Shown here: one piece after another, positions 3,133-58,918 of the stretch
Position numbering within the stretch: the stretch's first letter is position 1
Layout: every line of letters starts with the position of its first letter
Source: a bacterium
GTDB lineage: Bacteria > Patescibacteriota > SICC01
DNA length: 64,000 nt
Reading direction: 5' to 3'
NCBI GenBank assembly: GCA_030699935.1
Contig: JAUYKS010000002.1
Coordinates: 65,018-129,017, forward strand
Program-made: the position numbers and the translations under genes
The notes under the pieces: model-generated
What the model was told of the DNA's origin: nothing
Databases searched by the model: none
Seen by the model: the letters and a program-made list of their open reading frames with translations, nothing else

Positions 3133-3189
3133 ATACTAACGTCGTGCGAAAAGGACATTCTCGCAAGCACGCCGACCCCCTGATGCCGG
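3133..3189 (+). repeat. Direct repeat copy 1: degenerate duplicate of the 5' end of the PHP-domain gene (pseudo-start fragment)
   Basis: ~48/57 nt identical to 4588-4644. In frame it translates VRKGHSRKHADPLMP…, a degenerate copy of the PHP protein's first 15 residues (of 4599-5447), then hits a stop. Confidence 0.8.
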
Positions 3190-3361: not shown

Positions 3362-4549
3362 ATGAGCGAAGAAACGATAACCGCCACCGACCTGGCTGCA
3401 GAGTTGGGCATCGAAGCTGAGCTCAGGGGCGATGCGGGTATCGACCCGGACGTCGAGGTTGATGTCGACGAGGGCACCGATCCGGACATAATCGAGAGAT
3501 ACGAATCCGACCTCGCGATGTTGCCCGAGGTCGAGGATCGGGAAACAAGCATTACGTTGCCGAGCGAACGGACCGACGACGAAATCTTCGCCGGCCAAGA
3601 CGTGTATGCTTTCCCGGTCGTGTCCGCCGACGGCACCCACAAACTGATTCGCGGTACGGTCAGGGATGTAACCCTGTACGACTTTGAACACAGCAGCCCG
3701 GGCTTCGCGAGTCTCATGTTCAGGGAGCCTCCGTACCGGTATACCGGAGTCGACCTGAATCACAGCTCCCTGATCCCGGCCGTGGCCATGGATGCGTTCA
3801 AGCGGGATCCTGATCTTCTTGAACGATGGCTGCAAGACGGGACTCCGGAAGACCTGCGTGAGGTCGACGAGTTGCGCGATTCGATAGAGGCGGCCCTGGA
3901 GTTTCACGTCACTGACTCCGAAGCGTTCGAACCCATTCCAGTGCCGGAGGAGACGTCGAAGCCGAAACGAACCGGGGTTCGGAAGCGTTCCGTCGAGTAC
4001 GAGATCGCCGCGCTGAAAGACGAATACCTGGAGCGGGCCTGGCGCGACTCCCTGTATGCCATGTCCAAGAAAGAAGAACGGGCATTGCTGGCCGCGGTCC
4101 AGACCGGTGACAGAGGAGCTTTCGATCAGGTCTTCGAGGGGCACCTCGGCCTGGTCGCCTTTTTCGTCGAGCAACAGAACGCCAACGGTACCTCCCAGGA
4201 ACTGATGCGTCGCGGGTCGGAAATCCTGCGGGAAACCATCCACGGATTCCAAGCCGTCAACGGGAACCGCTTGGCCGATGCCGTTTGCGAGAGTCTCGAT
4301 GCGCGGTTGACGGCCGACCTGTTCGAACAACTGGATGAGCGTAAGGAAAAGGCGAGCGAGGCACGTGAAAAGTTCCGGGGCGTAGTGCAGTTGGATCCTC
4401 AGGAAAAGCCCGCCCGCGCCGCGAAGCCTGCCGCCGAGAGTTCTCCTACTTTTTGCGATATTGATGAAGATCTCGATGAAGCCTGTGCGGTGGCCTGGGC
4501 CGGAGTCCATCGGTCCCTGGCCGAAGCTAGTAATCCGTACATGGACTGA
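3362..4549 (+). CDS. Acidic hypothetical protein with a sigma-70 region-2-like segment
   Basis: 395 aa, D/E-rich N-terminus. Segment …EERALLAAVQTGDRGAFDQVFEGHLGLVAFFVEQQ…SQELMRRGSEILRETIHGF… resembles sigma-70 regions 1.2/2.1-2.2. No recognisable region 4. Preceded by a ~170-bp AT-rich stretch. Confidence 0.55.
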   Translation: MSEETITATDLAAELGIEAELRGDAGIDPDVEVDVDEGTDPDIIERYESDLAMLPEVEDRETSITLPSERTDDEIFAGQDVYAFPVVSADGTHKLIRGTVRDVTLYDFEHSSPGFASLMFREPPYRYTGVDLNHSSLIPAVAMDAFKRDPDLLERWLQDGTPEDLREVDELRDSIEAALEFHVTDSEAFEPIPVPEETSKPKRTGVRKRSVEYEIAALKDEYLERAWRDSLYAMSKKEERALLAAVQTGDRGAFDQVFEGHLGLVAFFVEQQNANGTSQELMRRGSEILRETIHGFQAVNGNRLADAVCESLDARLTADLFEQLDERKEKASEAREKFRGVVQLDPQEKPARAAKPAAESSPTFCDIDEDLDEACAVAWAGVHRSLAEASNPYMD

Positions 4550-4587: not shown

Positions 4588-4644
4588 ATACTAACGTCGT
4601 GCGAAAAAGACACTCCCGGACTCATGCCGACCCCCTGATGCCGG
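4588..4644 (+). repeat. Direct repeat copy 2 (native 5' end and start of the PHP-domain gene)
   Basis: Matches 3133-3189 and contains the GTG start at 4599. Confidence 0.8.
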
Positions 4645-7806: not shown

Positions 7807-8181
7807 TTACGAGACTTTTTTCGTCGCCGTCTTCTTGGCGGCGGGCTTCTTAACCGCCGTTTTGGCGGCCGGTTTCTTCGAAGCAGCCTTCGCCGCCGGT
7901 TGGGCCGCAGCCGGTTTCGTCTTCGCCCGCTTCAACACGTCGACGACCCGCGACTTGTACCGGGCCGCGGTCCGCGGGTGGATCGCCCGCACTTTGGCCG
8001 CCTTGTCGAGATACTTCTGCGCGGCCGGCAGCGCCTTGGCAGCCTCTTCGGCCTTGCCGGCGGCGGCCAGCGTACGCACCTGCTTGAGCGCCGTCCGGGC
8101 GCGGGAACGGTGAAGCGTGTTTTTCTCCGCCTGCCGGGCGGCGACCTTCACGCGTTTCTTGGCTGATTTGATCTGAGGCAT
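7807..8181 (-). CDS. rpsT: 30S ribosomal protein S20 with Ala/Lys-rich C-terminal extension
   Basis: MPQIKSAKKRVKVAARQAEKN… is a canonical S20 start. ~40-aa AK-rich tail. Confidence 0.9.
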   Translation of the reverse strand: MPQIKSAKKRVKVAARQAEKNTLHRSRARTALKQVRTLAAAGKAEEAAKALPAAQKYLDKAAKVRAIHPRTAARYKSRVVDVLKRAKTKPAAAQPAAKAASKKPAAKTAVKKPAAKKTATKKVS

Positions 8182-8244: not shown

Positions 8245-9279
8245 TTAGTTTAGGCCCAGCCAGAAACGGGCGGATTCGGCCCAAGAGTTTCCGGTTCGCT
8301 GCTCGGCAGGATGCTCTTCAGCCGGCTGCATCGATTCGAATACCTTGATTATCTCTTCCTTCGGCAGTTGGCCGTCGAGAATTCCCTCCGTATCGCCGGT
8401 TTTGTAAGTGTAGCCGCCGAAGTCAGGGTCGGCGTAGATTGAACCGCTGTTTGTCTTGGCGTAAAACTGACACCCTTTCTGATCGGAGTACCCGTTGGCA
8501 GTCGGACCGCCGCAGTTTTCGGGAGGGTTGTATACGGAGGGTGATTCAAGCACCAGCACTTTGTAGAAGCCGTCATCGGATTCGTACCGTAAATCAACGA
8601 CGGGTTTGCCAGTAAAAGGTTCGTCATTAACGGATCGACTGAATAGCTTGTAGCCCGCAGGCTGGTAGGTGGGTATCAGCACGTTTTCCGGAGTGGTTTC
8701 TTTGACGACTTCGGTCTGGCGGCCCTGATCGGCGAAGGCCAGTCCCGCGTATATCACGATCATTCCGGCTACGGCCAGATAGAGCGGCCAACGGGTCTGC
8801 GCCTGCGGTTGCTCCACTCCTGGTTGAGTCGTCTTTACATACTGGTTGTAAGCGCGAAGCAAAGATCCCCAATAAGCCAGTAATGTCAGGTAACCGGCCA
8901 GCGTCAGCGTCACCAGGCCGCCTTTGATATAGAAAATGGTGAGCGCGCCGCATAGTCCTTCCAAGCAGTTTGTGATGGCGGAAATACGGAGTGCCACATA
9001 CAAGCCGATTATTGCGGCCAGACCGACTAGTCCAAACAAAAACGATAGACCGTGATAGGGGCGGAGGCCGAATTGCCAGCGCCAGTCATTTAGAACGCCA
9101 GTCAAACTTGTCTTCTCGGGGTTGATTCCCTGAGCGAGCTTAGGCCTGGTCACGAAGAACCAGTACAGCAGGTACGGAGGAAACAATGCGGCCAGAAGAA
9201 TATTGAGAAGGATCGGTTGCTTAATCGAGTGGCTCGCTTCCATGCGGCCATAGTACAACACCATTGACGTAAAGCCCAA
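8245..9279 (-). CDS. Hypothetical polytopic membrane protein with Cys-containing C-terminal extracytoplasmic domain
   Basis: 4+ TM helices. GC noticeably lower (~50-52%) than neighbours. The true start may be internal (MEASHS…). Confidence 0.5.
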   Translation of the reverse strand: MGFTSMVLYYGRMEASHSIKQPILLNILLAALFPPYLLYWFFVTRPKLAQGINPEKTSLTGVLNDWRWQFGLRPYHGLSFLFGLVGLAAIIGLYVALRISAITNCLEGLCGALTIFYIKGGLVTLTLAGYLTLLAYWGSLLRAYNQYVKTTQPGVEQPQAQTRWPLYLAVAGMIVIYAGLAFADQGRQTEVVKETTPENVLIPTYQPAGYKLFSRSVNDEPFTGKPVVDLRYESDDGFYKVLVLESPSVYNPPENCGGPTANGYSDQKGCQFYAKTNSGSIYADPDFGGYTYKTGDTEGILDGQLPKEEIIKVFESMQPAEEHPAEQRTGNSWAESARFWLGLN

Positions 9280-9310
9280 AAAGTGTTATCATTAAGCAAT
9301 TTTTCCGAGG
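9264..9310 (+). promoter_or_regulatory. Conserved promoter block, copy A: TTGACG-N17-TATCAT + taagcaatttt leader
   Basis: Shares the -35/-10 architecture and downstream AATTTT block with copies at 38580, 52946 and 55766. Confidence 0.5.
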
Positions 9311-9317
9311 TTTTTCA

Positions 9318-9346
9318 TTGACAGATGAGGAACCGGCCGATATGCT
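9318..9346 (+). promoter_or_regulatory. Second tandem promoter upstream of nrnA (TTGACA-N17-TATGCT)
   Basis: Consensus -35 with 17-nt spacer. Confidence 0.4.
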
Positions 9347-9380: not shown

Positions 9381-10823
9381 ATGGAACTAAGTCCCAAACA
9401 ACAAGTCACCGAATTGGTCAGGAAGTTCGATAACGTCCTGATCGTTACGCACGCCCGTCCCGACGGCGATGCGATCGGTTCGGCCTTGGCGATGCACCTC
9501 GTGCTCGAGCAGCTCGGCAAGCACCCGACGACGATCATCCGCGACGACATCCCGGGGATGTTCCGGTTCCTGCCGGCGCTCGACAAGGTCACCAAGGACC
9601 TGACCGGCAGCCGCGACCTCGTCGTCAGCGTGAACACGGCGCGGACCAAGGTCGACAAGCTGAAGTACAACACGACCGAAGACCGGCTGAACGTGGTGAT
9701 CTCGCCGAAGGACGGCCAGTTCGCCGACAAGGACGTGGACGTCCGACAGGGCGCGTACAGCTTCGACTTAGTAATCGTCCTCGACGCGCCCGATCTCGAC
9801 CGCCTCGGTTCGCTCTACGAGGACAACCCGGACCTCTTTTACGAGGCGCCGGTGGTGAACATCGACCATCATCCGTCGAACGACTACTTCGGCGCGGTGA
9901 ACCTGGTCGACCTCACCGCGACCTCGACTTCGGAGATCCTGGTCGGCGTAATCGAAGCGCTCGGCGAATCGCTGATGACCGAGGACGTGGCGACGCTGCT
10001 CCTGACCGGACTGATCACCGACACCGGCAGCTTCCAGAACGCCAACACCACCCCGAAGTCGCTGACCGTCAGCGCCCAACTGGTGGCCCAGGGCGGCCGG
10101 CAGCAGGAGATCGTCCAGCATTGCTACAAGACCAAGCCGCTCTCGACGCTGCGGCTCTGGGGCCGGGCCCTGACGCGGCTTCAGTACGATCCGACCACCC
10201 GCGTCGTCTGGGCCAGCTTGACCAACGCGGACTTCAAGGAGACGGGCGGTACGCCGACCGAAGCGAAGGAAGTGATCGACTCGTTGATGAGCTCCGCGCC
10301 GGACGCCGAAGTGATCCTGCTGCTCCGTGAACGCGAGGACGGACGGGTCGACGGCAGCGTCCACACCACCAAGGGCGTCGATGCCACCAAGGTAGTCGGC
10401 TTCTGGAACGGCGGCGGCCATAAGGGCGCGGCCGGTTTCGACACCGACGGTCCGCTCGAGAACGCGGAACGCAACGTGGTGCTCCAGGTCAAGAAATGGC
10501 AGGCGCAGCGCCTCGGCGTACAAGGCCCGACCGAGAACACCTCGTCCGGCCGCTCGCAGACCGCGGATCTGCCGCCCCGCCCCGCCGAACAAGTCCCGAC
10601 CCGGCCGACGCGCCAGCCGCAGCGTCCTAACCGGCCGCGTCAGAACGGCATGGTCAGCGGCGGCGTAGCCGGCAAGGCGCCTTCGAAACCGCCGCAGCAA
10701 CCGGACCAGCAACCCCAGCAACCGCTCTCCGATGACGAACTGGACGCCTACTTCAAGAAATCGTCCGGTCCGAACGGCCAAGTCATCGACCAGCAGCCGA
10801 AACGGGACGATGGCCGCAGCTGA
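9381..10823 (+). CDS. nrnA: DHH/DHHA1 phosphoesterase (NrnA-like oligoribonuclease/pAp phosphatase) with P/Q-rich C-terminal tail
   Basis: …VTHARPDGDAIGS… DHH motif. …GGGHKGAAGF… DHHA1 motif. ~110-aa low-complexity tail. Confidence 0.8.
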   Translation: MELSPKQQVTELVRKFDNVLIVTHARPDGDAIGSALAMHLVLEQLGKHPTTIIRDDIPGMFRFLPALDKVTKDLTGSRDLVVSVNTARTKVDKLKYNTTEDRLNVVISPKDGQFADKDVDVRQGAYSFDLVIVLDAPDLDRLGSLYEDNPDLFYEAPVVNIDHHPSNDYFGAVNLVDLTATSTSEILVGVIEALGESLMTEDVATLLLTGLITDTGSFQNANTTPKSLTVSAQLVAQGGRQQEIVQHCYKTKPLSTLRLWGRALTRLQYDPTTRVVWASLTNADFKETGGTPTEAKEVIDSLMSSAPDAEVILLLREREDGRVDGSVHTTKGVDATKVVGFWNGGGHKGAAGFDTDGPLENAERNVVLQVKKWQAQRLGVQGPTENTSSGRSQTADLPPRPAEQVPTRPTRQPQRPNRPRQNGMVSGGVAGKAPSKPPQQPDQQPQQPLSDDELDAYFKKSSGPNGQVIDQQPKRDDGRS

Positions 10824-15407: not shown

Positions 15408-15446
15408 CCATCCCCGCACCGTGCACATTGACGGGCGCGGGGATGG
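15408..15446 (+). terminator. GC-rich hairpin (ccatccccgc / gcggggatgg, 19-nt loop) after pnp; the loop embeds the -35 (TTGACG) of the next promoter
   Basis: Perfect 10-bp inverted repeat. No U-tract. Confidence 0.35.
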
Positions 15447-15457
15447 TGGCATACTCT
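15428..15457 (+). promoter_or_regulatory. Promoter TTGACG-N18-TACTCT, immediately upstream of ATG 15466 (near-leaderless)
   Basis: -35/-10 spacing read from the sequence. Confidence 0.4.
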
Positions 15458-15465
15458 AAGGCGTT

Positions 15466-16128
15466 ATGGAAGCTAGAACAGCACGACTTTTGGACTTTCC
15501 GTTAGGGCCCCGACGCACCGCCCGGCGCGCCCGCCCTGCGGGCGAGCGGATCGATTACCTTGCTATGGCCAAGCAGGAGAGCCAACGCGAGATTACCGAG
15601 GAATTGCTGCGCCGCCTGACCGATGTCGATCCCCGGGAGTTGGAGCGCTTGCGGATTCGGACCGAGCGGAAGCCGGACAAGATCACGCTCGAACAAGAGG
15701 TACGCCTGCACGAGGGAGTTATGCAATTGGCCGGGGTCCGGCTGAAGGGCGCCATGGAGGTCGAACTCCGGAAGCCCGGCAGTGAGGAGATGGTCAGGAT
15801 CGTGGCTGGCTCCCATCGCGGCGGCATCGAGCGGATCGTCCACCTTTCGCCCGAACATCAGGAGATCGGTACGCCCGACGGGGTCGTCTCAATCCGGCCT
15901 ACCTATGTCCCGCATTTCCGCAAGATTGATGACGTGGACCGCGAGATGCTGATGCAGGACAACTCGGTGAGCTCGTTCGACCAGAAAGGTCGGCTGATCG
16001 GTACGCGGATCCATCCGCGGCAACCGTCGCCGATCGAGGTCGCGCGGCTGATCCCGCTCCTGCGGGACGGCGAGGTGACGGGCCGCACCGCGGAATCCGC
16101 CGTGGCCGACACCGCGGACGAAGCCTGA
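15466..16128 (+). CDS. Hypothetical protein
   Basis: ORF; alternative start at MAKQESQ (15565). Confidence 0.4.
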   Translation: MEARTARLLDFPLGPRRTARRARPAGERIDYLAMAKQESQREITEELLRRLTDVDPRELERLRIRTERKPDKITLEQEVRLHEGVMQLAGVRLKGAMEVELRKPGSEEMVRIVAGSHRGGIERIVHLSPEHQEIGTPDGVVSIRPTYVPHFRKIDDVDREMLMQDNSVSSFDQKGRLIGTRIHPRQPSPIEVARLIPLLRDGEVTGRTAESAVADTADEA

Positions 16129-27804: not shown

Positions 27805-27833
27805 TTGACAAGTAGGCAATAATTGGCTATACT
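27805..27833 (+). promoter_or_regulatory. Promoter TTGACA-N17-TATACT
   Basis: Near-consensus sigma-70 promoter 20 nt upstream of ATG 27854. Confidence 0.5.
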
Positions 27834-27853
27834 AGGCCAATTACCTTCGTATT

Positions 27854-37858: not shown

Positions 37859-37931
37859 GCCCCGGTAGCTCAGTTGGCAGAGCAGTGGGCTTTTAACCCA
37901 TGTGTCACAGGTTCGAGACCTGTCCGGGGCA
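37859..37931 (+). tRNA. tRNA-Lys (anticodon UUU)
   Basis: Acceptor stem gccccgg/ccggggc, D-arm tagctcagttggcagagc, anticodon loop cuUUUaa, T-arm ggttcgagacc. No encoded CCA. Coordinates +/-1. Confidence 0.85.
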
Positions 37932-38579: not shown

Positions 38580-38626
38580 TTGACAAAGTGCCCAAAATTT
38601 GCTATGTTAAGGCAATTTTCAAAGAT
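38580..38626 (+). promoter_or_regulatory. Conserved promoter block, copy B: TTGACA-N17-TATGTT + aaggcaattttcaaa leader, 18 nt before ATG 38627
   Basis: Same architecture as copies A, C and D. Confidence 0.55.
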
Positions 38627-41600
38627 ATGAACACGGGCATCACACATAAGGTAATCCTCGCGGCGGTAGTCGCGGCAGCGGGCGCGGTCATGGTAACGGC
38701 GCTCAGCCAAACGGCGTCGGACCCTTACGTCGCGAAGTCGCCGCCCGCCCCCCAAGCCGGCAAGGAAATCCGGAGCTTGACCAAGGTGAGCGGCCATTCG
38801 CTTGAGACGGTCAAGCTGAAGGACGGCAAGGAAACCAAGGCGGCCGCCGGGCATCTGGTGGTCCGCTTGGAGAATGACGCCGCCAAGCGGCAATTCGGGG
38901 ACCGGTTGACCGGGACCAGCATTCCGAATATCTATCTGTTGTCCGTCGACGAACCGGTCAGCCAGGCCCGCACCAAGGTCGCGGCGCTGCCGGGAGTGCG
39001 GAGCGCCACGCCGGACTTCGTCGTCGCGGCGACCCGCACGCCCGACGATCCGCACTACCCGTACCAGTGGGGACTGCCGAAGATCAAGGCGCCAGCCGCC
39101 TGGGACCGGACGGTCGGTTCTTCGTCCGTCATCATCGCCAGCATCGACACCGGGGTGAACGCCTCGCACCAGGACCTCTCCGGCAAGATGTGGACGAACC
39201 CGGGCGAGACCTGCGGCGACAACGATGACGACGACGGGAACGGCTACATCGACGACTGTAACGGCATGGACTTCGTGAACGGGACCAAGCCGGGCGGCGT
39301 CTTCAAGAACGACGCCAACGGCCCGGACGACGATCAAGGTCACGGGACGCTGACGTCGTCGGTCTTCGCGGCTGACACTGACAACGGCCTTGGCGTTGCC
39401 GGCGTCGATTGGAACGCGAAGGTATTGGCGATCAAGGTATTGGACTCCGACGGCTACGGGTTATTTTCCGACGTCGCGGAGGGAATCCGGTACGCTGGCA
39501 TAGTCGGCGCGGACGTCGCCAACATGAGCCTCGGCGCGGACGGACTGACCACCGAGACGATGACCGACACGGCGATCAACGAAGCGATCGCGGACGGCGT
39601 CATCCTAGCCGCCGCTTCCGGTAACGATGGTTACACGAACTCCATCAACTATCCGGCGATCAACCCGTACGTGATCTCGGTCGGGGCCACTACCTCGACC
39701 GACGCGCGAGCCGGCTATTCGAACGGCGGTTCGCAGCTCGACCTGGTCGCGCCAGGGTCGGGCATCCGCGGCGCCTACCTCGGCAACACGAGCTACGTCT
39801 CGGCCTCCGGCACCTCGCTGTCCACGCCGCACGTCGCGGGCGTGGCGGGATTGCTCCGAGCGCTGGACCCGGACGTCAGCTACTCCCGAGTCCGGACGAT
39901 CCTGAAGAGCACCGCCGATACCGTCTCCGGCATGAACGGAGCCACCCGCACCAACCTCTACGGCGAGGGCCGGCTCGATGCGAACGGCGCCCAATCCCTG
40001 ATCAAGGCCTACTCCAGCGAATGGGTCCGGCAGTCCGCGACCGCGACCGCGGCATCCGGAACCGACCGCGCGGTCTACGTCGACTACAAGAACGTCGGCC
40101 TGAACCCCTGGTCGAATACCGGATCGAACCCGGTCCGTCTCGGGACCAGCCACACCAAGGGGCATTCATCCCAGTTCTACAACACGTCCTGGCTGAGCAA
40201 GAGCCGTCCGGCCAGCTTCACGGGACGGGTCGAAGGCGACGGCAGCGTCACCGAGACCGACACCATTCAGCCCGGCGAGACGGCGCGGTTCAGCTTCACG
40301 ATGACCTCGCCGCCGCGGACGACCACCACGACGTTGCGCGAGTACTTCCAACCGGTCGTCGAAGGCGTGACCTGGCTCGAAGACCAGTCGAAGTACATCA
40401 CGACGACGGTACCGGGGCGGTACTACCGCGGCCAGTTGGTCGGGAAGACCAATCCGCCGCCGGTGGTCCTGGCAAACCAGCTCAGTCCGGTGACCGCCGA
40501 CGTGAAGAACACCGGCACCGCCACCTGGCGGAACGATACCTCCTACGACATGAGGCTCGGTACGGTCAATCCGGTAAGCCACAACAGCACGTGGTACGAC
40601 AGCGGTACCTGGCTGACGCGAAACCGGCTCGGCACGTTCGTCGGCAAGGTGTCGGGAGGCGTACTCACGCCGACTAATTCCATCGCTCCCGGCGAGACCG
40701 CCCGATGGTCGTTCCAAGTGAAGGCACCGTCCCGCGGCGGCACGTATCATGAATACTTCAGTTCGCTGATCGACTACTTCGGTTGGCAGAAGAACCTTAA
40801 CCTTGGTTGGACCCAGTTCGTGCCGAGCACCGCGTATGATTACAAGTTCGTAAGCAAGGCACCGCACTACCAGTACCTGGCCCGCGACGAGACGAAGACG
40901 ATCTACATCCGGCTCCGGAACATGGGATACGCCACCTGGCGCTCCAGCGGATCGGGTTCCGTCCGGCTCGGAACCGATCGTCCGCAGAACCGCGGCAGCG
41001 GATTCTCGGACGGCGGTACGGCGGCCGGCTGGATTACCAGCAACCGGATCAAGCTGGGCAGCAACCTGACGGATGCCGACAAGAACGTCGGCGGGGAAAC
41101 CAGCGTGGCGCCCGGCGAGATCGGTGAATTCGAGTTCGACATCGTCGGCAAGCCGCGATCGGGAACGTACAAGGAGTACTTCCGGCCTCTCGTCGAAGGC
41201 CGCGGCTGGATGAAGGACATCGGCATCAACTGGTCGATCACGGTGGAGAACCCGATCGACGTCGCGCTGACCAGCCAGTCCAGCGCGACCATGAGCGGCA
41301 CGAACACGGTTACGATCGTGGATGTGAACGGGACGAACCGCGGTACCGTCGCGCCCGCGACGGACTTCATTATGCGCAAGAACGGATCGCGCTATCAGGT
41401 ACTCCTGCCCGGCCCGGACATCGACTCCTGTTGCGTCCTGACGGCCCAGCAGGCGCCGGGCAACCGGTTCCTGGTGACGAACCTGGCTGACAACGGCAGC
41501 CAAAACTACTTCCGGGGCGAGATGTCGATCCGGACCGGCAGCGCCGGTACCCATCTGGTGAATTCCCCGAACCTCGAGCATTACTTGCGCGGCCTGGGCG

Positions 41601-42348: not shown

Positions 42349-42387
42349 CTGACCAGTAAACAACCTACCTTATGATACGCTGGTTGC

Positions 42388-43767
42388 ATGAAGCAACCAG
42401 CCTTAATGTTGGCGCTGGGAGTGATCGTCGGCGTGGCCGCGGCGTCCTGGCTGCCGGTATGGTTGGCGCTCGGGTTGGCGGCCGTTGCGTGCTACCGGTC
42501 GCTTCTGCTGGCAATCGGCCTGGCGATCGGCGCTTACCGGATCATGCTGAGCCCACTCCTGCCCCCGGAAGCGGACTTGGCGGACCTTGCCGGGCGGGAA
42601 CGGACGGTGCGCGGGGTGGTAGACTCGTTCCCGGATTATCGGCAGGAATACCAGCAGTTCGTCGTCAAAGGGACGGCGGAGGGCAAAGAGGGCAGGACGC
42701 TGGTCCAGACCGACCCCTTGCTCGAGTTCTCGCCAGGCGACCGCGTCGAGGTGACCGGCCTGCTGACCGCGCCGCGCAACTTCGACGGTTTCGACTATCG
42801 GAGCTTCCTGGCCAAGGACGGCGTCCACTCGATCATGCGCCGGGCCGACGTCAACATCGCAGGAAGCAAACAAACGCTGGCGCGGACTTTTTACGCGATC
42901 CGGAAGCGCTGGGTGCTGCAGACGGAACGTACGTTCCCCGAGCCGGCCGCCGGGTTCAGCCTGGGTATCCTGATCGGCGAACGCTCGACGTTGTCCGACT
43001 CCCATATCGAGGCGTTCCGGAAGACCGGCACGACCCACATCCTGGCGCTGTCCGGATTCAACGTCAGTATCATCATCACGGCGATCGTCTGGGTGCTCGG
43101 ACGGAAGCCGGCGGCGCTGACCGCGTCCCTGGGACTGATTGCGGCATTCGTCCTTCTGGTCGGTCCGTCCGCGACGGTGGTACGAGCCGCGCTGATGGGC
43201 GGCTTCCTCCTGCTCGGACAACTTTTTGGACGTCCGCAGGCGGCCATGTACGGCGCGGTGATCACGGCCGCCGCGATGCTGTTGATCCAACCCCACGCTT
43301 TGCGCTATGACCTCGGTTTTGACCTCTCCTTCCTCGCCACCCTCGGCATCCTCTGGCTGGAGCCGGACATCCGCTCCCGGATCACGCGCGTCCCCGAGCT
43401 GGCCCGTGGAATCGTATCCGCGACGCTTGCCGCCAGCGGGGCGACGGCGCCGCTGATCGCGCTGACGTTCGGGACGGCCAGCCTGGTGTCGCCGCTGGCG
43501 AACCTGCTGGTGGTCCCGGCGATTCCTCTCCTGATGCTCGGCGGTTTCGTCAGCGTGATGATCTCGTTCGTTTCGTCCGAGTTGGCCGCCTTGCCGGCGG
43601 CGTTGACCGCCGCCGCGACCGTCCGTCTGCTCGGCGGAATCAGTTGGCTGGCCGACCTGCCGGCCGCCTCGGTCACGTTCGCGGAGCTGAAGGGACCCAC
43701 GGCGATCCTGCTGTCGGTGGTCGCCGCCGCCGGGATCTTCCAATTGAAACGGCCACGGTATGCGTAA
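42388..43767 (+). CDS. comEC: ComEC/Rec2 DNA internalisation channel, competence (membrane) domain only
   Basis: …HILALSGFNVSIIITAIVWVLG… competence-domain signature and many TM helices. Confidence 0.8.
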   Translation: MKQPALMLALGVIVGVAAASWLPVWLALGLAAVACYRSLLLAIGLAIGAYRIMLSPLLPPEADLADLAGRERTVRGVVDSFPDYRQEYQQFVVKGTAEGKEGRTLVQTDPLLEFSPGDRVEVTGLLTAPRNFDGFDYRSFLAKDGVHSIMRRADVNIAGSKQTLARTFYAIRKRWVLQTERTFPEPAAGFSLGILIGERSTLSDSHIEAFRKTGTTHILALSGFNVSIIITAIVWVLGRKPAALTASLGLIAAFVLLVGPSATVVRAALMGGFLLLGQLFGRPQAAMYGAVITAAAMLLIQPHALRYDLGFDLSFLATLGILWLEPDIRSRITRVPELARGIVSATLAASGATAPLIALTFGTASLVSPLANLLVVPAIPLLMLGGFVSVMISFVSSELAALPAALTAAATVRLLGGISWLADLPAASVTFAELKGPTAILLSVVAAAGIFQLKRPRYA

Positions 43768-50620: not shown

Positions 50621-50787
50621 ACGACAATCTTAGCTAAAAAAAGGAACGCCGACCTGCTGAGAGCATGCTGCCGGCAATTGTACCCTCAGCACAAGTAACT
50701 GGTATGAGGGTATAAATGCCTGAGCGTGACGATTTATCTGTTGGATACCCGACGGTTGTTACTCTCCGCTGGTGGTACGATTTGCGC

Positions 50788-51381
50788 ATGACAGTCGTTA
50801 TCGCTAGCAAATGCCAAGAAGGTGTGCTGTTGGCTTCGGATACACGAGGAAGGCAGTATATCCCAGACGTTCGTGAGAAGGAATCGGTAGATGGTGTTAG
50901 TAAGATTTTCCCCATGAGCGACAAGGTGGCTGTGCTGTCTTTTGGAGCAGGCCTGCAAGACTTCGACAAAAGGCTAGAAGGCCACGCTAAATCACAAAAA
51001 GCGAACATTGCTGCTGGCTTGATTAAGGATCAACCGGACTTAGATTTGTTCAAGAACACACTTCCTCACTTCTTCAATTACACCTACCTTGACCAGCCAG
51101 ACGACATGGAAGATTCTGCTGGGTTCTTGCTGGTTAGTAAGAATGAAACATATAGTCTGCACTCTAACTCCGATTTTGCGCCAGAAAAAATAGATGCTGA
51201 CTACAAAGTGGCTGGTGTTCCAGATATTCTGTTTGAGGGGGATAAGAAACTGACGGCCAGAGAAACCGCTGATCGAGCCATTAAAGCCATAGAGTATTGC
51301 GCCAAGAAGTATAAAGACGACGTAAACAACGATGTTCAGATGTGGCTTATCACTGACTCCGGTATGTCCCGCTTTACATAG
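50788..51381 (+). CDS. Orphan HslV/proteasome-beta-like Ntn-hydrolase
   Basis: After Met: TVVIASKCQEGVLLASDTRG… (Thr1, Asp17, Lys ~33-38) and …VAVLSFGAGLQDF…, parallel to HslV TTIV…GDGQ…AGFAGG. Low-GC (~45%) islet; no HslU nearby. Confidence 0.5.
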   Translation: MTVVIASKCQEGVLLASDTRGRQYIPDVREKESVDGVSKIFPMSDKVAVLSFGAGLQDFDKRLEGHAKSQKANIAAGLIKDQPDLDLFKNTLPHFFNYTYLDQPDDMEDSAGFLLVSKNETYSLHSNSDFAPEKIDADYKVAGVPDILFEGDKKLTARETADRAIKAIEYCAKKYKDDVNNDVQMWLITDSGMSRFT

Positions 51382-51411
51382 TCAAACCACCGCCATACGA
51401 TAACTCCGTTA

Positions 51412-51912
51412 ATGCCTAAGAAGCAGCCAGCCACCGAAAAAGAGAAGACTATCGTCGGGGCGGTAATTCTCGCGGTATTCTCTGTATTCGCACTAACGGC
51501 CTGTACCGGTGGGAGCGACGACAGCGATACAAACGACACGACAAACAATCAGGCTAACGAATCTGTTAAAGAAACCCCGAAAAACGAAGAGTCTTTAGTC
51601 GATAAGGTCGAGGTAGCACTGGATAAATTGGGCGAAGGATATAAAAGTGAGCTGGCTTCAACGAACGGCGGCTATCGGGGCGATATAATTAGCGTTGAAC
51701 CAGCCGTAGGTGACGATACCGTTAAAGTTAATGTATCGACTCGCTTTAAAGACTCGGGTGATGAACCTGATGGCGGTAGAAACATAGCTCGCAGGATATT
51801 CGGCAGTATTTGTCTTGATGTTCCAGAGCTTGAAAGTCTGTATGTGGTAAGCAGTTCTGGATTGGAAAGTAAGTCAGTATATCGCAGTCAAATACCTGGC
51901 TGTAAGCAGTAG
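51412..51912 (+). CDS. Hypothetical lipoprotein (low-GC islet)
   Basis: Signal peptide + lipobox LTAC. Confidence 0.5.
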   Translation: MPKKQPATEKEKTIVGAVILAVFSVFALTACTGGSDDSDTNDTTNNQANESVKETPKNEESLVDKVEVALDKLGEGYKSELASTNGGYRGDIISVEPAVGDDTVKVNVSTRFKDSGDEPDGGRNIARRIFGSICLDVPELESLYVVSSSGLESKSVYRSQIPGCKQ

Positions 51913-51974
51913 ATCAGTAGTCGGCAGAAGCGAGTAGAATATGAGTGTGGCTGAGAAAAACCCAGTATCCCTCA

Positions 51975-52990
51975 ACGCTTTCAACCGATTGCTTAACCGC
52001 GCTTCGCAACCGGCAGCGAAACCTGCGAAACCAAAGCGTCGAACATCCCGCCCTGCAAAGTCCGGTGGGAATACCGCCAGCCGTACTCGTTAGCGTAAAG
52101 CTGTAGGTACTTCGGGCTGACGTGCCGGTACACGCCGGTTATGCCTCGTTTGAGGTGTGACCAGATATTCTCGATGTTCTGGGTGTGAACCGATCCGCTG
52201 ACGTACTGCTTCCGCTGGTGCTTGATACCGTCGTGGGTAAAGCCGACCTTGTGGAGTTTCGAGTAAACCCCATGTTCGTCATGGTAAATGGTCGCGTCCG
52301 GCGCGACGTTGAGGACAATAGGCGGGGTCAGGGCTTCGGTTCCGGTGTGGGGGACATGGACGAGCTTGGCCTTTCCGCCTCGTGAAACCATGCCGAACAC
52401 AACGGCCTTATCCTGATGTCCGCCTCGGTTACTGTGCTTCTTATCAGGGTGCCGGTTCTGGTCTGCCCCGCCGACAAACGTTTCATCCACCTCGACTTCG
52501 CCGGACAGCATTTCGCCGTCCTCGGCAGACATGAGCGTTCGTATCTGCTTGGCGATCCGCCACGCTGTCTTATAGGTCACGCCAAGCTCCCGCTCCAACT
52601 GCTTGGCCGAGATACCAGCGCGGGTCTGAACCATGAGGTACATGGCGTAAAACCACAGCCAGAGTGACGTGGTGGACTTCTCAAAGACCGTACCGGCCAA
52701 CGGGTAGACTTGGTACCCGCAGTTGCAGGCATAGCTGGTACGTCCCTTAACACGGGACAGCTCGTTTTCCCGTCCGCACTTCGGGCAGGTGAAATCACGG
52801 AAGCGGATTTGCCGTATTTCCTCTAGGCACGCAGCGTCATCAGGGAACCGCTTACGGAAGTCTGCGATGGTGAACCTGTCGTCCATAGGCACATATTAGC
52901 AGCTAACCTACTTGTAGTCAAGGTATAAGTGCCATGCTGCCAGCCTTGACTATTAGCACCTTTTGTGTTATGGTTAAGCAATTTTCAAAC
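51975..52990 (-). mobile_element. IS1595-family (ISXO2-like) insertion sequence, ~1 kb, bounds approximate
   Basis: Single transposase ORF. 11-bp terminal inverted repeats ATTGCTTAACC (51988-51998) and GGTTAAGCAAT (52972-52982). Sits in a low-GC islet. Confidence 0.7.
51993..52892 (-). CDS. IS1595-family transposase (DDE, N-terminal Zn-finger)
   Basis: …FTCPKCGRENELSRV…YACNCGYQV… zinc ribbon, HTH (…LGVTYKTAWRIAKQIR…), ISXO2-like DDE domain. Confidence 0.85.
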   Translation of the reverse strand: MPMDDRFTIADFRKRFPDDAACLEEIRQIRFRDFTCPKCGRENELSRVKGRTSYACNCGYQVYPLAGTVFEKSTTSLWLWFYAMYLMVQTRAGISAKQLERELGVTYKTAWRIAKQIRTLMSAEDGEMLSGEVEVDETFVGGADQNRHPDKKHSNRGGHQDKAVVFGMVSRGGKAKLVHVPHTGTEALTPPIVLNVAPDATIYHDEHGVYSKLHKVGFTHDGIKHQRKQYVSGSVHTQNIENIWSHLKRGITGVYRHVSPKYLQLYANEYGWRYSHRTLQGGMFDALVSQVSLPVAKRG

Positions 52991-52992
52991 CT
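52946..52992 (+). promoter_or_regulatory. Conserved promoter block, copy C: TTGACT-N17-TATGGT + taagcaattttcaaa leader; outward-facing at the IS right end, ending at the galT ATG
   Basis: Same block as copies A, B and D; contains the IS right inverted repeat. Confidence 0.55.
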
Positions 52993-54000
52993 ATGGAAAA
53001 TTATCCCTCAGAGCTGCGGCGCGGACATCTCGACCATCGGTGGGTGCTGATCGCCTCCGGACGGGCCGACCGTCCCCAGGACTACATCAATCACACGCCG
53101 TCCAAGGTGCGGCGCGATCCCTTCTCCCCGGAGAACATCCGGAAGGAGGACATCATCGACCTGATCCCGAACAACGACGGCACCGAGTACGAGACGCCGA
53201 GCACCTGGAAGGCGATGGCAGTGAGGAATCTCTACCCGTTCGTCGGGAAGGTCGCAGGCCGGAAGCCGCGCTCCACCGGCGACATCCGAGACGGCGTCGG
53301 CGCGCACGAGATCATCATCCACTCGCCGGATCCCGACCGGGACTTCGGAAGCTTCGAGTCTGAACAGGCGCAGGCGGTCCTCGAGCTCTACCTGAAGCGG
53401 TACAACCACCTCTCGCACATGCCGGAGGTCAAGCATGTGCAGATCTTCACCAACCGTGGCAAGGAAGCGGGAGCCTCGGTCGTGCACCCGCACACCCAGG
53501 TGGTTGCCTTGCCGGTCGTTCCGCCGTACATCAAGGACCTGGTCCGGATCGCCGGCAAACACTACGACAAGAGTCAGTCCAAGCTGAGCGAGGACGAGGT
53601 CGAACGGGAAATCCACGAGGCGTCCCGGGTGATTTACGAGAATTCGAAGTTCCTGGTGTACTGCCCGTTCGCGCCCTTGGCCGACTACCACATCCGGATC
53701 ATGCCTAAGGAGCGGGGTTCCTACTTCCATGAGATCACCCAGGAGCAGGTCGAGCACCTGTCGCGGGTCCTCAACCTGGTCTTCCGGCGGCTGGACCGGA
53801 TCGCCGGCATCCCGCCCTACAACGCTTACATCCGGACGGCGCCGGTCGGTGCCGACGAGAAAAGGCTGCGCGGGTTCCGCTGGCACATCGACATCCTGCC
53901 GCACCTGGCGATTCCCGGCGGCCTCGAGATTTCCACCGGACTCACCGTGGTGACGGTCTTCCCCGAGGACGCGGCGCATGCCCTAAGGCAGGATTCATGA
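52993..54000 (+). CDS. galT: Galactose-1-phosphate uridylyltransferase (HIT-like class II GalT)
   Basis: …ASGRADRP… and the HxHxQ motif (VVHPHTQVVALP). Confidence 0.7.
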   Translation: MENYPSELRRGHLDHRWVLIASGRADRPQDYINHTPSKVRRDPFSPENIRKEDIIDLIPNNDGTEYETPSTWKAMAVRNLYPFVGKVAGRKPRSTGDIRDGVGAHEIIIHSPDPDRDFGSFESEQAQAVLELYLKRYNHLSHMPEVKHVQIFTNRGKEAGASVVHPHTQVVALPVVPPYIKDLVRIAGKHYDKSQSKLSEDEVEREIHEASRVIYENSKFLVYCPFAPLADYHIRIMPKERGSYFHEITQEQVEHLSRVLNLVFRRLDRIAGIPPYNAYIRTAPVGADEKRLRGFRWHIDILPHLAIPGGLEISTGLTVVTVFPEDAAHALRQDS

Positions 54001-55765: not shown

Positions 55766-55823
55766 TTGACATTTACGCCAAATAATGTTATGGTTGTCTA
55801 ATTTTGCAACACAAATACCACGC
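55766..55823 (+). promoter_or_regulatory. Conserved promoter block, copy D: TTGACA-N17-TATGGT + tgtctaattttgcaac leader upstream of pilN
   Basis: Same architecture as copies A, B and C. Confidence 0.5.
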
Positions 55824-56429
55824 ATGTACTCGCACACGTTAAACCTACTTCCGCGCAAAGAGCAGCGGCGCCGCCGGACCGACCTGCTCAACTACTACAC
55901 GCTCGTCGCGGGCATCGTGACCGTGACCGGCGCCCTGGTGATGGCCGGACTCCTGCTGGTGTTCGACCAAATCTACAAGGTCAATCTTGACGATCTCCAG
56001 GCCGACAAGCAGCTAGTGGAAAGCCAGGCCGTGGCGTACCTGGACATCGAGAAGGAAGCGAAAGGCCTGGAAGTCCAACTGGACAACCTCCGCCAGGCCG
56101 AAGGGCAGACGACGCGGTGGGCGGCCTTGGTCTCGGCGCTCCGCACCATGACGCCGGAGGGCGTGTCGATCAAGACGGTCGCGTTCATCGGCAAGGATGC
56201 CGCCGGCCAAGGGGCCGTCGACAACCAGAGCCAAAACCAAAATAACCAGAGCCAGATCACCGGCGTCACGACGAGCCGCCGTGCACTCGGCCAGTTCCAG
56301 CTGGCGTTGTCCGAATCGGCGTTCCTCAAGGAATCCCAGATCCTGAACACCACCCGGGAGGGCAAGGTCATCCAATACACCATGTCGATCGAAATCGACC
56401 AATCCGAGCTGGAGGCGTCGCAATCATGA
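55824..56429 (+). CDS. pilN: Type IV pilus assembly protein PilN
   Basis: …LNLLPRKEQRRRRTD… PilN signature, then a TM helix and coiled coil. The MLWLSNF… extension is rejected. Confidence 0.7.
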   Translation: MYSHTLNLLPRKEQRRRRTDLLNYYTLVAGIVTVTGALVMAGLLLVFDQIYKVNLDDLQADKQLVESQAVAYLDIEKEAKGLEVQLDNLRQAEGQTTRWAALVSALRTMTPEGVSIKTVAFIGKDAAGQGAVDNQSQNQNNQSQITGVTTSRRALGQFQLALSESAFLKESQILNTTREGKVIQYTMSIEIDQSELEASQS

Positions 56430-58803: not shown

Positions 58804-58918
58804 CTGTACTTCTTAATAGTTGCTTTCTTATCCACAGGATATCCTAATCACAACTAGCAGTCAAGCATATATACTGAATCCGGTTCCTTAATAACGAGGT
58901 CCACGACTCCACCAGGAG

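Follow-up and report, generated by a model that had tools for sequence, protein, structure and literature searches.

The closest described relatives of the element analyzed here are the extended −10 (TGn) promoters of the σ70/σA type, including the Gram-positive promoters with a TRTG "−16 region." The element is a block of ∼45 nt that recurs ahead of several genes in a 64,000-nt stretch of DNA from a bacterium of the Patescibacteriota (contig JAUYKS010000002.1 of assembly GCA_030699935.1, positions 65,018–129,017 of the forward strand), hereafter the window. The block shares TTGACA, a 17-bp spacer, TG, TANNNT, and their orientation with the extended −10 class. In contrast to that class, its −10 reads TATGNT, and an invariant AATTT(T) start block, outside the class definition, follows. 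A study of promoters in 49 bacteria has described a four-region spacer, C at the 3′ end of the UP region, an Ex element, a discriminator, a Y-R-Y/R "start" triplet (Y, pyrimidine; R, purine) centered on the start site 6–8 nt past the −10, and lineage-specific T-tracts in the initial transcribed region (Kuo et al., NAR 2025; PMC12641261). Analogous features are found in the block: a Y-A-A triplet 6–7 nt past the −10; a spacer made of an AT tract, a GC patch, a second AT tract, and TG; C enrichment upstream of the −35; a W-rich discriminator (W, A or T) as in Terrabacteria; and a T-tract at the 5′ end. Whereas the published features are statistical enrichments, with the T-tract mainly in Gracilicutes, the block is a near-invariant string of 6–7 nt in a Patescibacteria lineage. 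No description of the motif, or of any Saccharibacteria promoter consensus, was found in the literature searched. Every component of the block is a known kind of promoter element, and the block is thus a lineage-specific variant rather than a separate category. The comparisons below indicate that its unusual part is the near-invariance of AATTT(T), which calls for an explanation.

The reading favored here, with somewhat better than an even chance of being correct, is that the blocks are native, conserved, near-consensus housekeeping-sigma (σA/σ70-type) promoters of a high-GC Saccharimonadia lineage with a conserved start block, YAATTTTY. The sequence-only reading of this DNA had reported a "promoter plus leader block" at four loci. 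All four sequences are present at the coordinates it gave, and that description was right. The copies in the window, together with a second promoter that lies behind the first of them, are as follows.

9264–9310, plus strand: block A, promoter P1 of nrnA; −35 TTGACG at 9264–9269, 17-nt spacer, TG at 9284–9285, −10 TATCAT at 9287–9292, discriminator TAAGC, AATTTT at 9298–9303.

9318–9346, plus strand: promoter P2 of nrnA, TTGACA-17-TATGCT, without the block, between block A and the ATG at 9381.

38580–38626, plus strand: block B, promoter of the gene for a 1231-residue S8/SpoIID secreted protein; −35 at 38580–38585, 17-nt spacer, −10 TATGTT at 38603–38608, AATTTT at 38614–38619, ATG at 38627.

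52946–52992, plus strand: block C, promoter of a galT-like gene; −35 TTGACT at 52946–52951, −10 TATGGT at 52969–52974, AATTTT at 52980–52985, ATG at 52993.

55766–55823, plus strand: block D, promoter of pilN(-pilO) with its 24-nt leader; −35 at 55766–55771, −10 TATGGT at 55789–55794, AATTTT at 55800–55805, ATG at 55824.

27805–27853, plus strand: a degenerate fifth copy, E; TTGACA-17-TATACT-aggcc-AATTAC, without TG.

A search of the window with TTGAC-N18-TATNNT-N5-AATTTT returned exactly four matches (9264, 38580, 52946, and 55766), all on the plus strand, and allowing two mismatches added only copy E at 27805. The chance expectation for the pattern is 0.02 matches, and none of 100 dinucleotide-preserving shuffles gave five. 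The G+C content of the window is ∼63%, and AATTTT occurs 11 times on its two strands; four of the 11 lie exactly 5 nt past a consensus −10. In an independent scan for σ70 consensus sites between 37.5 and 57 kb, blocks B, D, and C were among the top-ranked sites, and all three had TG ahead of the −10. When the surrounding 60–100 nt on either side were aligned, homology was limited to the ∼45-nt block and the flanks could not be aligned. A longer dispersed repeat was considered and rejected, there being no homology over those 60–100 nt and no block family in the output of a repeat finder.

Within the block, the −35 reads TTGAC followed by G, A, T, and A in A, B, C, and D, and the spacer is exactly 17 nt in all four. 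The sequence-only reading had noted this spacer and its internal similarity, both of which are present and are the expected architecture of a promoter; the TG of an extended −10, found in four of four copies, had not been named. Other parts of its description hold for most copies. A TATGNT −10 is seen in B, C, and D and is replaced by TATCAT in A. Of the proposed AATTTT(C/G)CAA, the AATTTT is common to all four and the CAA to three, the tail of block A reading AATTTTTCC. The distance to the gene, given as 12–30 nt, is 13, 13, and 24 nt for B, C, and D when counted from the initial A of AATTTT up to the ATG, but 83 nt for A, where the ATG at 9381 is the first possible nrnA start and the conserved promoter P2 intervenes. 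Copy E stands 15 nt ahead of the ATG (27854) of a 339-codon open reading frame (ORF) without a Pfam match. The genes assigned to the blocks (nrnA, S8/SpoIID, galT, and pilN) are supported by Pfam, with matches to DHH/DHHA1 (NrnA-like), S8 plus SpoIID, a GalT-like uridylyltransferase, and PilN, respectively. No Rfam family was found at the blocks, the only Rfam match in the window being a tRNA-Lys at 37859–37931.

To follow the block in relatives (L numbers denote related loci), the orthologous loci L030 and L035–L043 were retrieved by protein, blind to the motif; identities given are those of the protein to the window gene. A metagenome scan with GalT yielded one usable ortholog, L030. The GalT-like protein is identical to one in the metagenome-assembled genome (MAG) GCA_034375485.1, and a Saccharimonadia relative has GalT and NrnA homologs at 81%–86% identity with the gene order around both genes kept. 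These matches place the window in a high-GC Saccharibacteria (TM7) genome. At nrnA, the block is retained in five of five loci, L039 (86%), L040 (72%), L041 (65%), L042 (61%), and L043 (56%), where P1 reads TTGACA-17-TATAAT/TATACT/TATTAT-taagc-AATTTT (taacg in L042); the second TTGACA promoter, P2, is also kept in all five. Orthologs of galT have AATTTT in L030 (62%), L035 (69%), and L036 (63%) and AATTTC in L037 (53%), and the block is lost in L038 (43%). At pilN, the corresponding string is AATTTT in L035, AATTTG in L037, and AATTTC in L038. Orthologous blocks of both galT and pilN are also present in L008 and L010, and those of the S8/SpoIID gene lie at L012:3442 (minus strand) and L038:579 (plus strand). 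Altogether, the four blocks occupy orthologous positions in 6–9 related genomes and are retained down to ∼45%–60% protein identity. The sequence-only reading had pointed to related genomes as a check, and there the same block stands ahead of the same genes. A Kazan-group bacterium has no block at the orthologous NrnA promoter; the element is thus not universal in Patescibacteria.

These alignments also show free divergence in the upstream flanks, in the middle of the spacer, and in the leaders past about +8. Retention of the block against this background indicates that the AATTT core is under purifying selection, comparable to that on the −35 and −10 within the Saccharimonadia clade. By the same comparison, the block is a real, lineage-typical control signal, neither a stray nor a mobile repeat. 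The phylogenetic distribution was also surveyed with a stricter pattern, scanned over one genome per species (185,579 species). Twenty-nine matches were obtained, 18 of them in six high-GC (0.51–0.65) MAGs of Saccharimonadia type, as judged from titles that name Saccharimonadia, Saccharibacteria, or Patescibacteria or, for CAM bin17, from orthology with these MAGs. The remaining 11 were scattered singletons in AT-rich or unrelated taxa.

A profile was built from 28 nonredundant instances, in which TTGAC, TA...T, and AATTT are imposed by the search. The positions left free are informative. TG precedes the −10 in 26/28 instances; the sixth base of the −35 is preferentially A; a G/C patch occupies the middle of the spacer, with C at one position in 19/28; and a T-tract lies 4–7 bases ahead of the −10, replaced by an A-tract in window copies A, B, and D. 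The −10 consensus is TATGNT, with G as the fourth base in 22/28. The first discriminator base is W in all 28 and the next is A in 19. The base just before AATTTT (−1) is a pyrimidine in 28/28, so that a Y-A-A triplet (C/T-A-A), which fits the "start" element, is found in every instance 6–7 nt past the −10. T occupies +6 in 26/28, which gives TTTT at +3 to +6 in 26 and TTT in all, and +7 is a pyrimidine in 26/28 and never A. Discriminator and start together recur as T-W-A-R-G-C-AATTTT. Upstream of the −35, apart from an enrichment of C immediately adjacent to it, there is no signal, and past +8 every position stays within 0.45 bit. The 28-instance profile reveals neither a dyad nor a direct repeat nor a second half-site, and its information is flat outside the promoter modules. 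The offset of AATTTT from the −10 is always 5 nt, whereas the distance from its first A to the start codon varies (7, 13, 13, 15, 15, 17, 20–24, 33, 34, 43, and 83 nt). Its position thus follows the −10, and hence the 5′ end of the transcript, rather than the start codon. Two other patterns were tried and discarded. A palindromic operator is suggested by AAAATTTGC...GCAATTTT around the −10 of block B, where other instances have T-tracts, and is not general; the Bacteroidetes-type −7 motif, TAnnTTTG, fits D only.

Each block accordingly combines all known core-promoter modules, close to their consensus: −35 TTGACA, a 17-bp spacer with a G/C patch followed by a T- or A-tract, the extended −10 TG, −10 TATGNT, W-A as the discriminator, pyrimidine-A-A as the start element, and a T-tract where the transcribed sequence begins. 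From the Y−1R+1 rule and the distance to the −10, transcription would start at either A of YAATTTTY, 6–7 nt past the −10. The predicted mRNAs would begin with 5′-A(A)UUUU(Y) and continue into a short (7–43 nt), G-poor, weakly structured leader, usually without a Shine-Dalgarno (SD) sequence. AATTTT may then act at the level of DNA and initiation, as a lineage-specific start and initial-transcribed element that fixes the start site and tunes initiation and escape at promoters that would bind the polymerase very tightly; a U-rich, unstructured 5′ end of the transcript would be a by-product. The block would recur as an optimum for the polymerase of this lineage, held by selection gene by gene, and would not have spread by copying. 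The sequence-only reading had stated that conservation extends beyond what RNA polymerase needs. For the spacer pattern, the TG, the discriminator, and Y-A-A, this does not stand, as all are described promoter modules (PMC12641261). It does stand for AATTT(T), which is invariant over the first bases to be transcribed and stronger than the generic rule, and of the explanations offered there, a conserved 5′ untranslated element comes nearest to this surviving part.

A dedicated sigma factor or regulator had also been proposed. Consensus promoters without the block, themselves conserved, bear on this proposal; those found in the window and in related loci are the following.

9318–9346, plus strand: nrnA P2, described above.

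Window ∼58830–58900: the divergent pair of promoters of a gene for a 188-residue protein (minus strand) and an M23 peptidase gene (plus strand), arranged back to back.

Promoter of an rpoD-like gene.

Window 15428: a leaderless promoter with an 18-nt spacer.

Two promoters of transcripts resembling noncoding RNAs.

These block-free promoters use the same TTGAC(A/T) and TATGNT/TAYNNT hexamers as the block, in the same genomes, which indicates the same sigma factor and makes a separate, regulon-specific sigma unlikely. A regulator site is likewise not supported: a dyad and a second half-site are both lacking, and all information lies in known core-promoter positions. In its general form, this alternative holds that a dedicated factor or an alternative sigma recognizes TAAGCAATTTT and coordinates genes for the cell surface, competence, and attack on the host. 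The recurrence of T-W-A-R-G-C-AATTTT and the many envelope, pilus, or secreted proteins among the block-led genes speak for it. AATTTTC is, moreover, identical to one half of the Firmicute CodY box. The complete CodY box is a 15-bp palindrome, AATTTTCWGAAAATT, of which the blocks contain the left 7–8 nt only, each position from +8 onward carrying less than 0.45 bit. With no dyad, direct repeat, or second half-site, with −35 and −10 hexamers no different from those of block-free promoters, and with a heterogeneous gene set, an operator is very improbable.

Several features of the block-free promoters deserve separate mention. In the 188-residue/M23 pair, the two −35 hexamers overlap; in L035 (15783–15798) the overlap reads TTGACTGCTTTGTCAA, equivalents are present in L036–L038, and the arrangement is conserved in the clade, with the AATTTT block in neither promoter. 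Leaderless-type starts, with a −10 (often TACAAT) 6–9 nt ahead of the start codon, are found in the window at 15428–15466 (plus strand) and 52921–52886 (minus strand) and at the starts of yebC, ftsX, and ruvA in L035–L038. Together with the SD-led genes and the short leaders beginning with AATTTT, these sequences make it seem that the lineage has three start modes. At L005:4820 (minus strand), L021:1652 (plus strand), L023:5687 (minus strand), and L023:5989 (minus strand), conserved consensus promoters are followed by structured, noncoding-looking sequence, with ggctggcttctggaaatcgcac... and with a hairpin and a T-run; all are without the AATTTT block. The transcripts predicted at the L005, L021, and L023 sites are possible small RNAs.

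The genes behind the blocks encode PilB, PilN-PilO, S8/SpoIID (followed by comEC), NrnA, GalT, M23 peptidases, giant surface proteins, a TrbL-like protein, a Kef-like transporter, and ORFans. Their leaders are rich in A and C and poor in G (13% G, compared with 28% in the upstream regions of all genes). SD-like tetramers precede 2 of 20 block-led genes, as opposed to 60 of 161 when every gene called in eight related loci is counted (Fisher p = 0.02), the sample being small and, through orthologs, not independent. The clear GGAG of dnaK in the window implies that the anti-SD is in use. The first 45 nt of the leaders fold weakly, with a mean of −4.1 kcal/mol compared with −11.6 kcal/mol for random genomic 45-mers. 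A frame hidden behind a leaderless AUU at +2 was considered and discarded; it is in frame with the annotated ATG in ∼6 of 14 cases, as expected by chance. The interval from the stop codon of the S8/SpoIID gene to the start of comEC (window 42349–42401) contains a weak promoter-like site together with a 9-bp hairpin, the latter overlapping the ATG of comEC (42388).

These leaders bear on a second alternative, in which A(A)UUUU(Y) is a 5′-terminal RNA element, a loading or stability signal for SD-independent translation of mRNAs with short leaders; the ribosome could, for example, bind the single-stranded, U-rich end. As the 5′ end of the RNA is fixed relative to the −10, the spacing data fit such an element equally well. 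The rarity of SD-like tetramers and the G-poor, weakly folding leaders agree with it, as does the absence of AATTTT from the consensus promoters of SD-containing leaders, leaderless starts, and noncoding-RNA-like transcripts. The weak folding, however, is fully explained by base composition (−4.2 kcal/mol in shuffles), and the SD comparison carries the limits given above. The start codon lies at a variable distance of 7–83 nt from the 5′ end, and at nrnA another promoter stands in between. No known rRNA site was found to be complementary, the 16S rRNA of the lineage itself not having been compared. Overall, a 5′ RNA element is regarded as unlikely, although deserving of consideration.

Similar weight is given to a third alternative, reiterative (slippage) initiation at AATTTT as a sensor of nucleoside triphosphates, which we consider improbable but worth taking seriously. 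At high uridine triphosphate (UTP) or adenosine triphosphate (ATP), AAUUU would slip and transcripts stutter, so that output follows the nucleotide pool without a protein regulator. The UTP-sensitive promoters of Escherichia coli, pyrBI (AATTTG), codBA (ATTTTTTG), and upp-uraA (GATTTTTTTTG), have one or two purines followed by at least three T residues, like the block. AATTTT is the pyrBI arrangement with one additional T, and the pilN ortholog in L037 has exactly AATTTG (PMC7039003). A homopolymer of 3 nt or more, located on the start site or immediately behind it, is required for slippage (PMC8812562, PMC7039003), and the block contains one. In E. coli, starts with TTT or AAA combined with a conserved −10 and a gap of 5–6 nt show high slippage and are enriched at cell-wall genes (PMC12709180). 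The block likewise has a 5-nt gap and a near-consensus −10, with +7 never A, and the genes that it leads include those for PilB, PilN, NrnA, M23 and S8/SpoIID hydrolases, and a UDP-sugar enzyme. In contrast to pyrBI, codBA, and upp-uraA, these are not pyrimidine genes: they form no regulon of pyrimidine synthesis or salvage, belong to many unrelated operons, and extend to functions as distant as the Kef-like transporter and the ORFans. A run of four or five T residues after AA may slip differently with the polymerase of this lineage, and slippage by itself leaves the conservation of Y at −1 and of the W-A discriminator unexplained.

Should slippage occur, a protein-free sensor of the nucleotide pool could operate, in which perhaps a tenth of the transcription units would respond jointly to UTP or ATP as a promoter-encoded "hunger" regulon of the Saccharimonadia clade. 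This extension is a shade less probable than slippage itself and is offered as speculation. Its members would include the genes for type IV pili, for the S8/SpoIID protein (beside comEC), for the nanoRNase NrnA, and for cell-wall hydrolases and giant surface proteins, in epibionts that scavenge nucleotides and are poor in regulators.

At λ PR′ and many E. coli promoters, −10-like elements within the initial transcribed region are established sites of σ70-dependent pausing. The corresponding explanation for the block would be that YAATTT is a second −10-like hexamer that recaptures sigma shortly after initiation and holds the polymerase ∼10–15 nt downstream. All instances have nAnnnT at −1 to +5, as do elements of the λ PR′ type in their first transcribed bases; TAATTT is found in 12/28, and the two −10-like hexamers lie 5 nt apart. 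The agreement at A2 and T6 arises by construction, because AATTT was imposed in the search, and the preference for T extends to +6 and +7, where a −10-like element needs none for the recapture of sigma. Such a pause is rated quite improbable.

The final alternative is that the blocks are dispersed remnants of a mobile element, either the end of an IS1595 insertion sequence (IS) or a miniature inverted-repeat transposable element (MITE) with an outward promoter. It arises from the surroundings of block C, where two features that are not part of the block are located.

51993–52886, minus strand: IS1595 transposase gene (ATG at 52886); the region up to 52945 lies directly upstream of the −35 of block C.

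52921–52893, minus strand: the transposase's own leaderless-type promoter.

Like the ends of IS1595 elements and MITEs, the block is short, AT rich, and repeated, and one copy abuts a transposase gene. This gene is bracketed by an 11-nt perfect inverted repeat (51988–51998 and 52972–52982), one arm of which falls within block C. The same word has a 9-nt inverted partner 64 nt ahead of A. In contrast to such elements, the blocks have no target duplications and no flank homology, and they occupy orthologous positions across species without variation of the insertion site. There is no IS near A, B, or D; the transposase is the only one in the window, and none is present in 28 related loci. In L008 and L035, which have no IS, the galT promoter is located ∼40 nt from the neighboring glycosyltransferase gene, and in L010 it is nearly identical to that of the window, spacer included (TTGACTATTAAGCACTATTGTGTTATGGTTAAGCAATTTTCAAACC versus TTGACTATTAGCACCTTTTGTGTTATGGTTAAGCAATTTTCAAACC). 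In relatives that carry these blocks, the word does not recur in inverted orientation. The repeat arm in C is native promoter sequence, and the repeat can therefore not mark the ends of an IS with the promoter inside. The suggestion that the motif is a mobile remnant, for which constant adjacency to IS1595 would have spoken, is consequently rejected, with hardly any probability left to it.

The DNA around blocks A and C shows signs of insertion in its own right. A low-GC island (∼0.50; 50634–52945), with two ORFs without Pfam matches (50716–51381 and 51412–51912) and the IS1595 transposase gene, forms an insertion between a GT4 glycosyltransferase gene and the promoter of galT; L008 and L035 lack it. 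The window contains four copies of the 8-mer TTAAGCAA (∼0.5 expected), at 9217–9224, 9292–9299, 51989–51996, and 52974–52981. Two of these copies lie in blocks A and C, and the other two are inverted and upstream of the same blocks, by 64 nt (A) and 973 nt (C), the latter overlapping the stop codon of the transposase gene. Both inverted copies are in window-specific inserted DNA, possibly reflecting insertion beside sequences that resemble the element's own end. At nrnA, a 332-codon ORF without a Pfam match (8245–9243, minus strand) separates it from rpsT (7807–8181). The rpsT-nrnA gap is ∼150–230 nt in five related genomes, and ∼20 nt separate the end of this window-specific insertion from the −35 of block A.

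Elsewhere in the window, a 57-nt direct repeat (88% identical; 3133–3189 and 4588–4644) brackets a ∼1.4-kb segment with a 395-codon ORF without a Pfam match (3362–4549), between a gene for a 677-residue DnaA_C-like protein and a PHP-domain gene. The two genes are adjacent in L039 and L040, and the second repeat copy holds the GTG start of the PHP gene (4599). The segment 3133–4644 looks like an insertion with a duplicated target or attachment sequence. In L036 (20060–21014), a bAvd-like gene stands beside a reverse transcriptase gene; this locus looks like a diversity-generating retroelement.

When the explanations are ranked, the initiation element is the most likely, followed by the slippage sensor, the 5′ RNA signal, the sigma-dependent pause, and the operator, with the mobile remnant rejected. 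The first four are mutually compatible and inseparable by sequence alone. Several points weigh against the reading of AATTTT as an initiation element. Conserved TTGACA-17/18-TANNNT promoters without AATTTT exist, and the polymerase does not require it. With a T-tract at +3 to +6, the RNA-DNA hybrid is weak, of no obvious benefit to promoter escape, and the depletion of SD-like tetramers fits a role in the RNA or in translation at least as well. Many of the instances come from a motif-seeded scan, and the genome-wide frequency is extrapolated from ∼64 kb and loci of 8 kb. Finally, the sole set of transcription starts from Saccharibacteria consists of 188 sites deduced from RNA-seq coverage in N. 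lyticus, flagged as imprecise by the study itself (PMC12641261).

Saccharibacteria and other Patescibacteria are mostly uncultivated, with tiny genomes and few recognizable regulators, and the start of transcription in these organisms is almost uncharted. The present analysis yields a concrete, evolutionarily validated class of strong native promoters for a high-GC Saccharimonadia lineage, of use in annotation, in the calling of operons and start codons, and in expression cassettes for the emerging genetic systems. The results are relevant both to the genetics of Patescibacteria and to the field of promoter-encoded regulation. At the putative start of these promoters, YAATTTTY is as conserved as the −35 and −10 at the orthologous promoters examined, and it has the slippage-prone start layout of pyrBI. 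This poses the question of whether promoter-encoded, nucleotide-dependent control, or a translation signal at the 5′ end, replaces protein regulators in reduced genomes. If the element is merely the local optimum of the polymerase, the finding is modest but solid promoter biology; should slippage prove to be the mechanism, the interest would be considerably greater.

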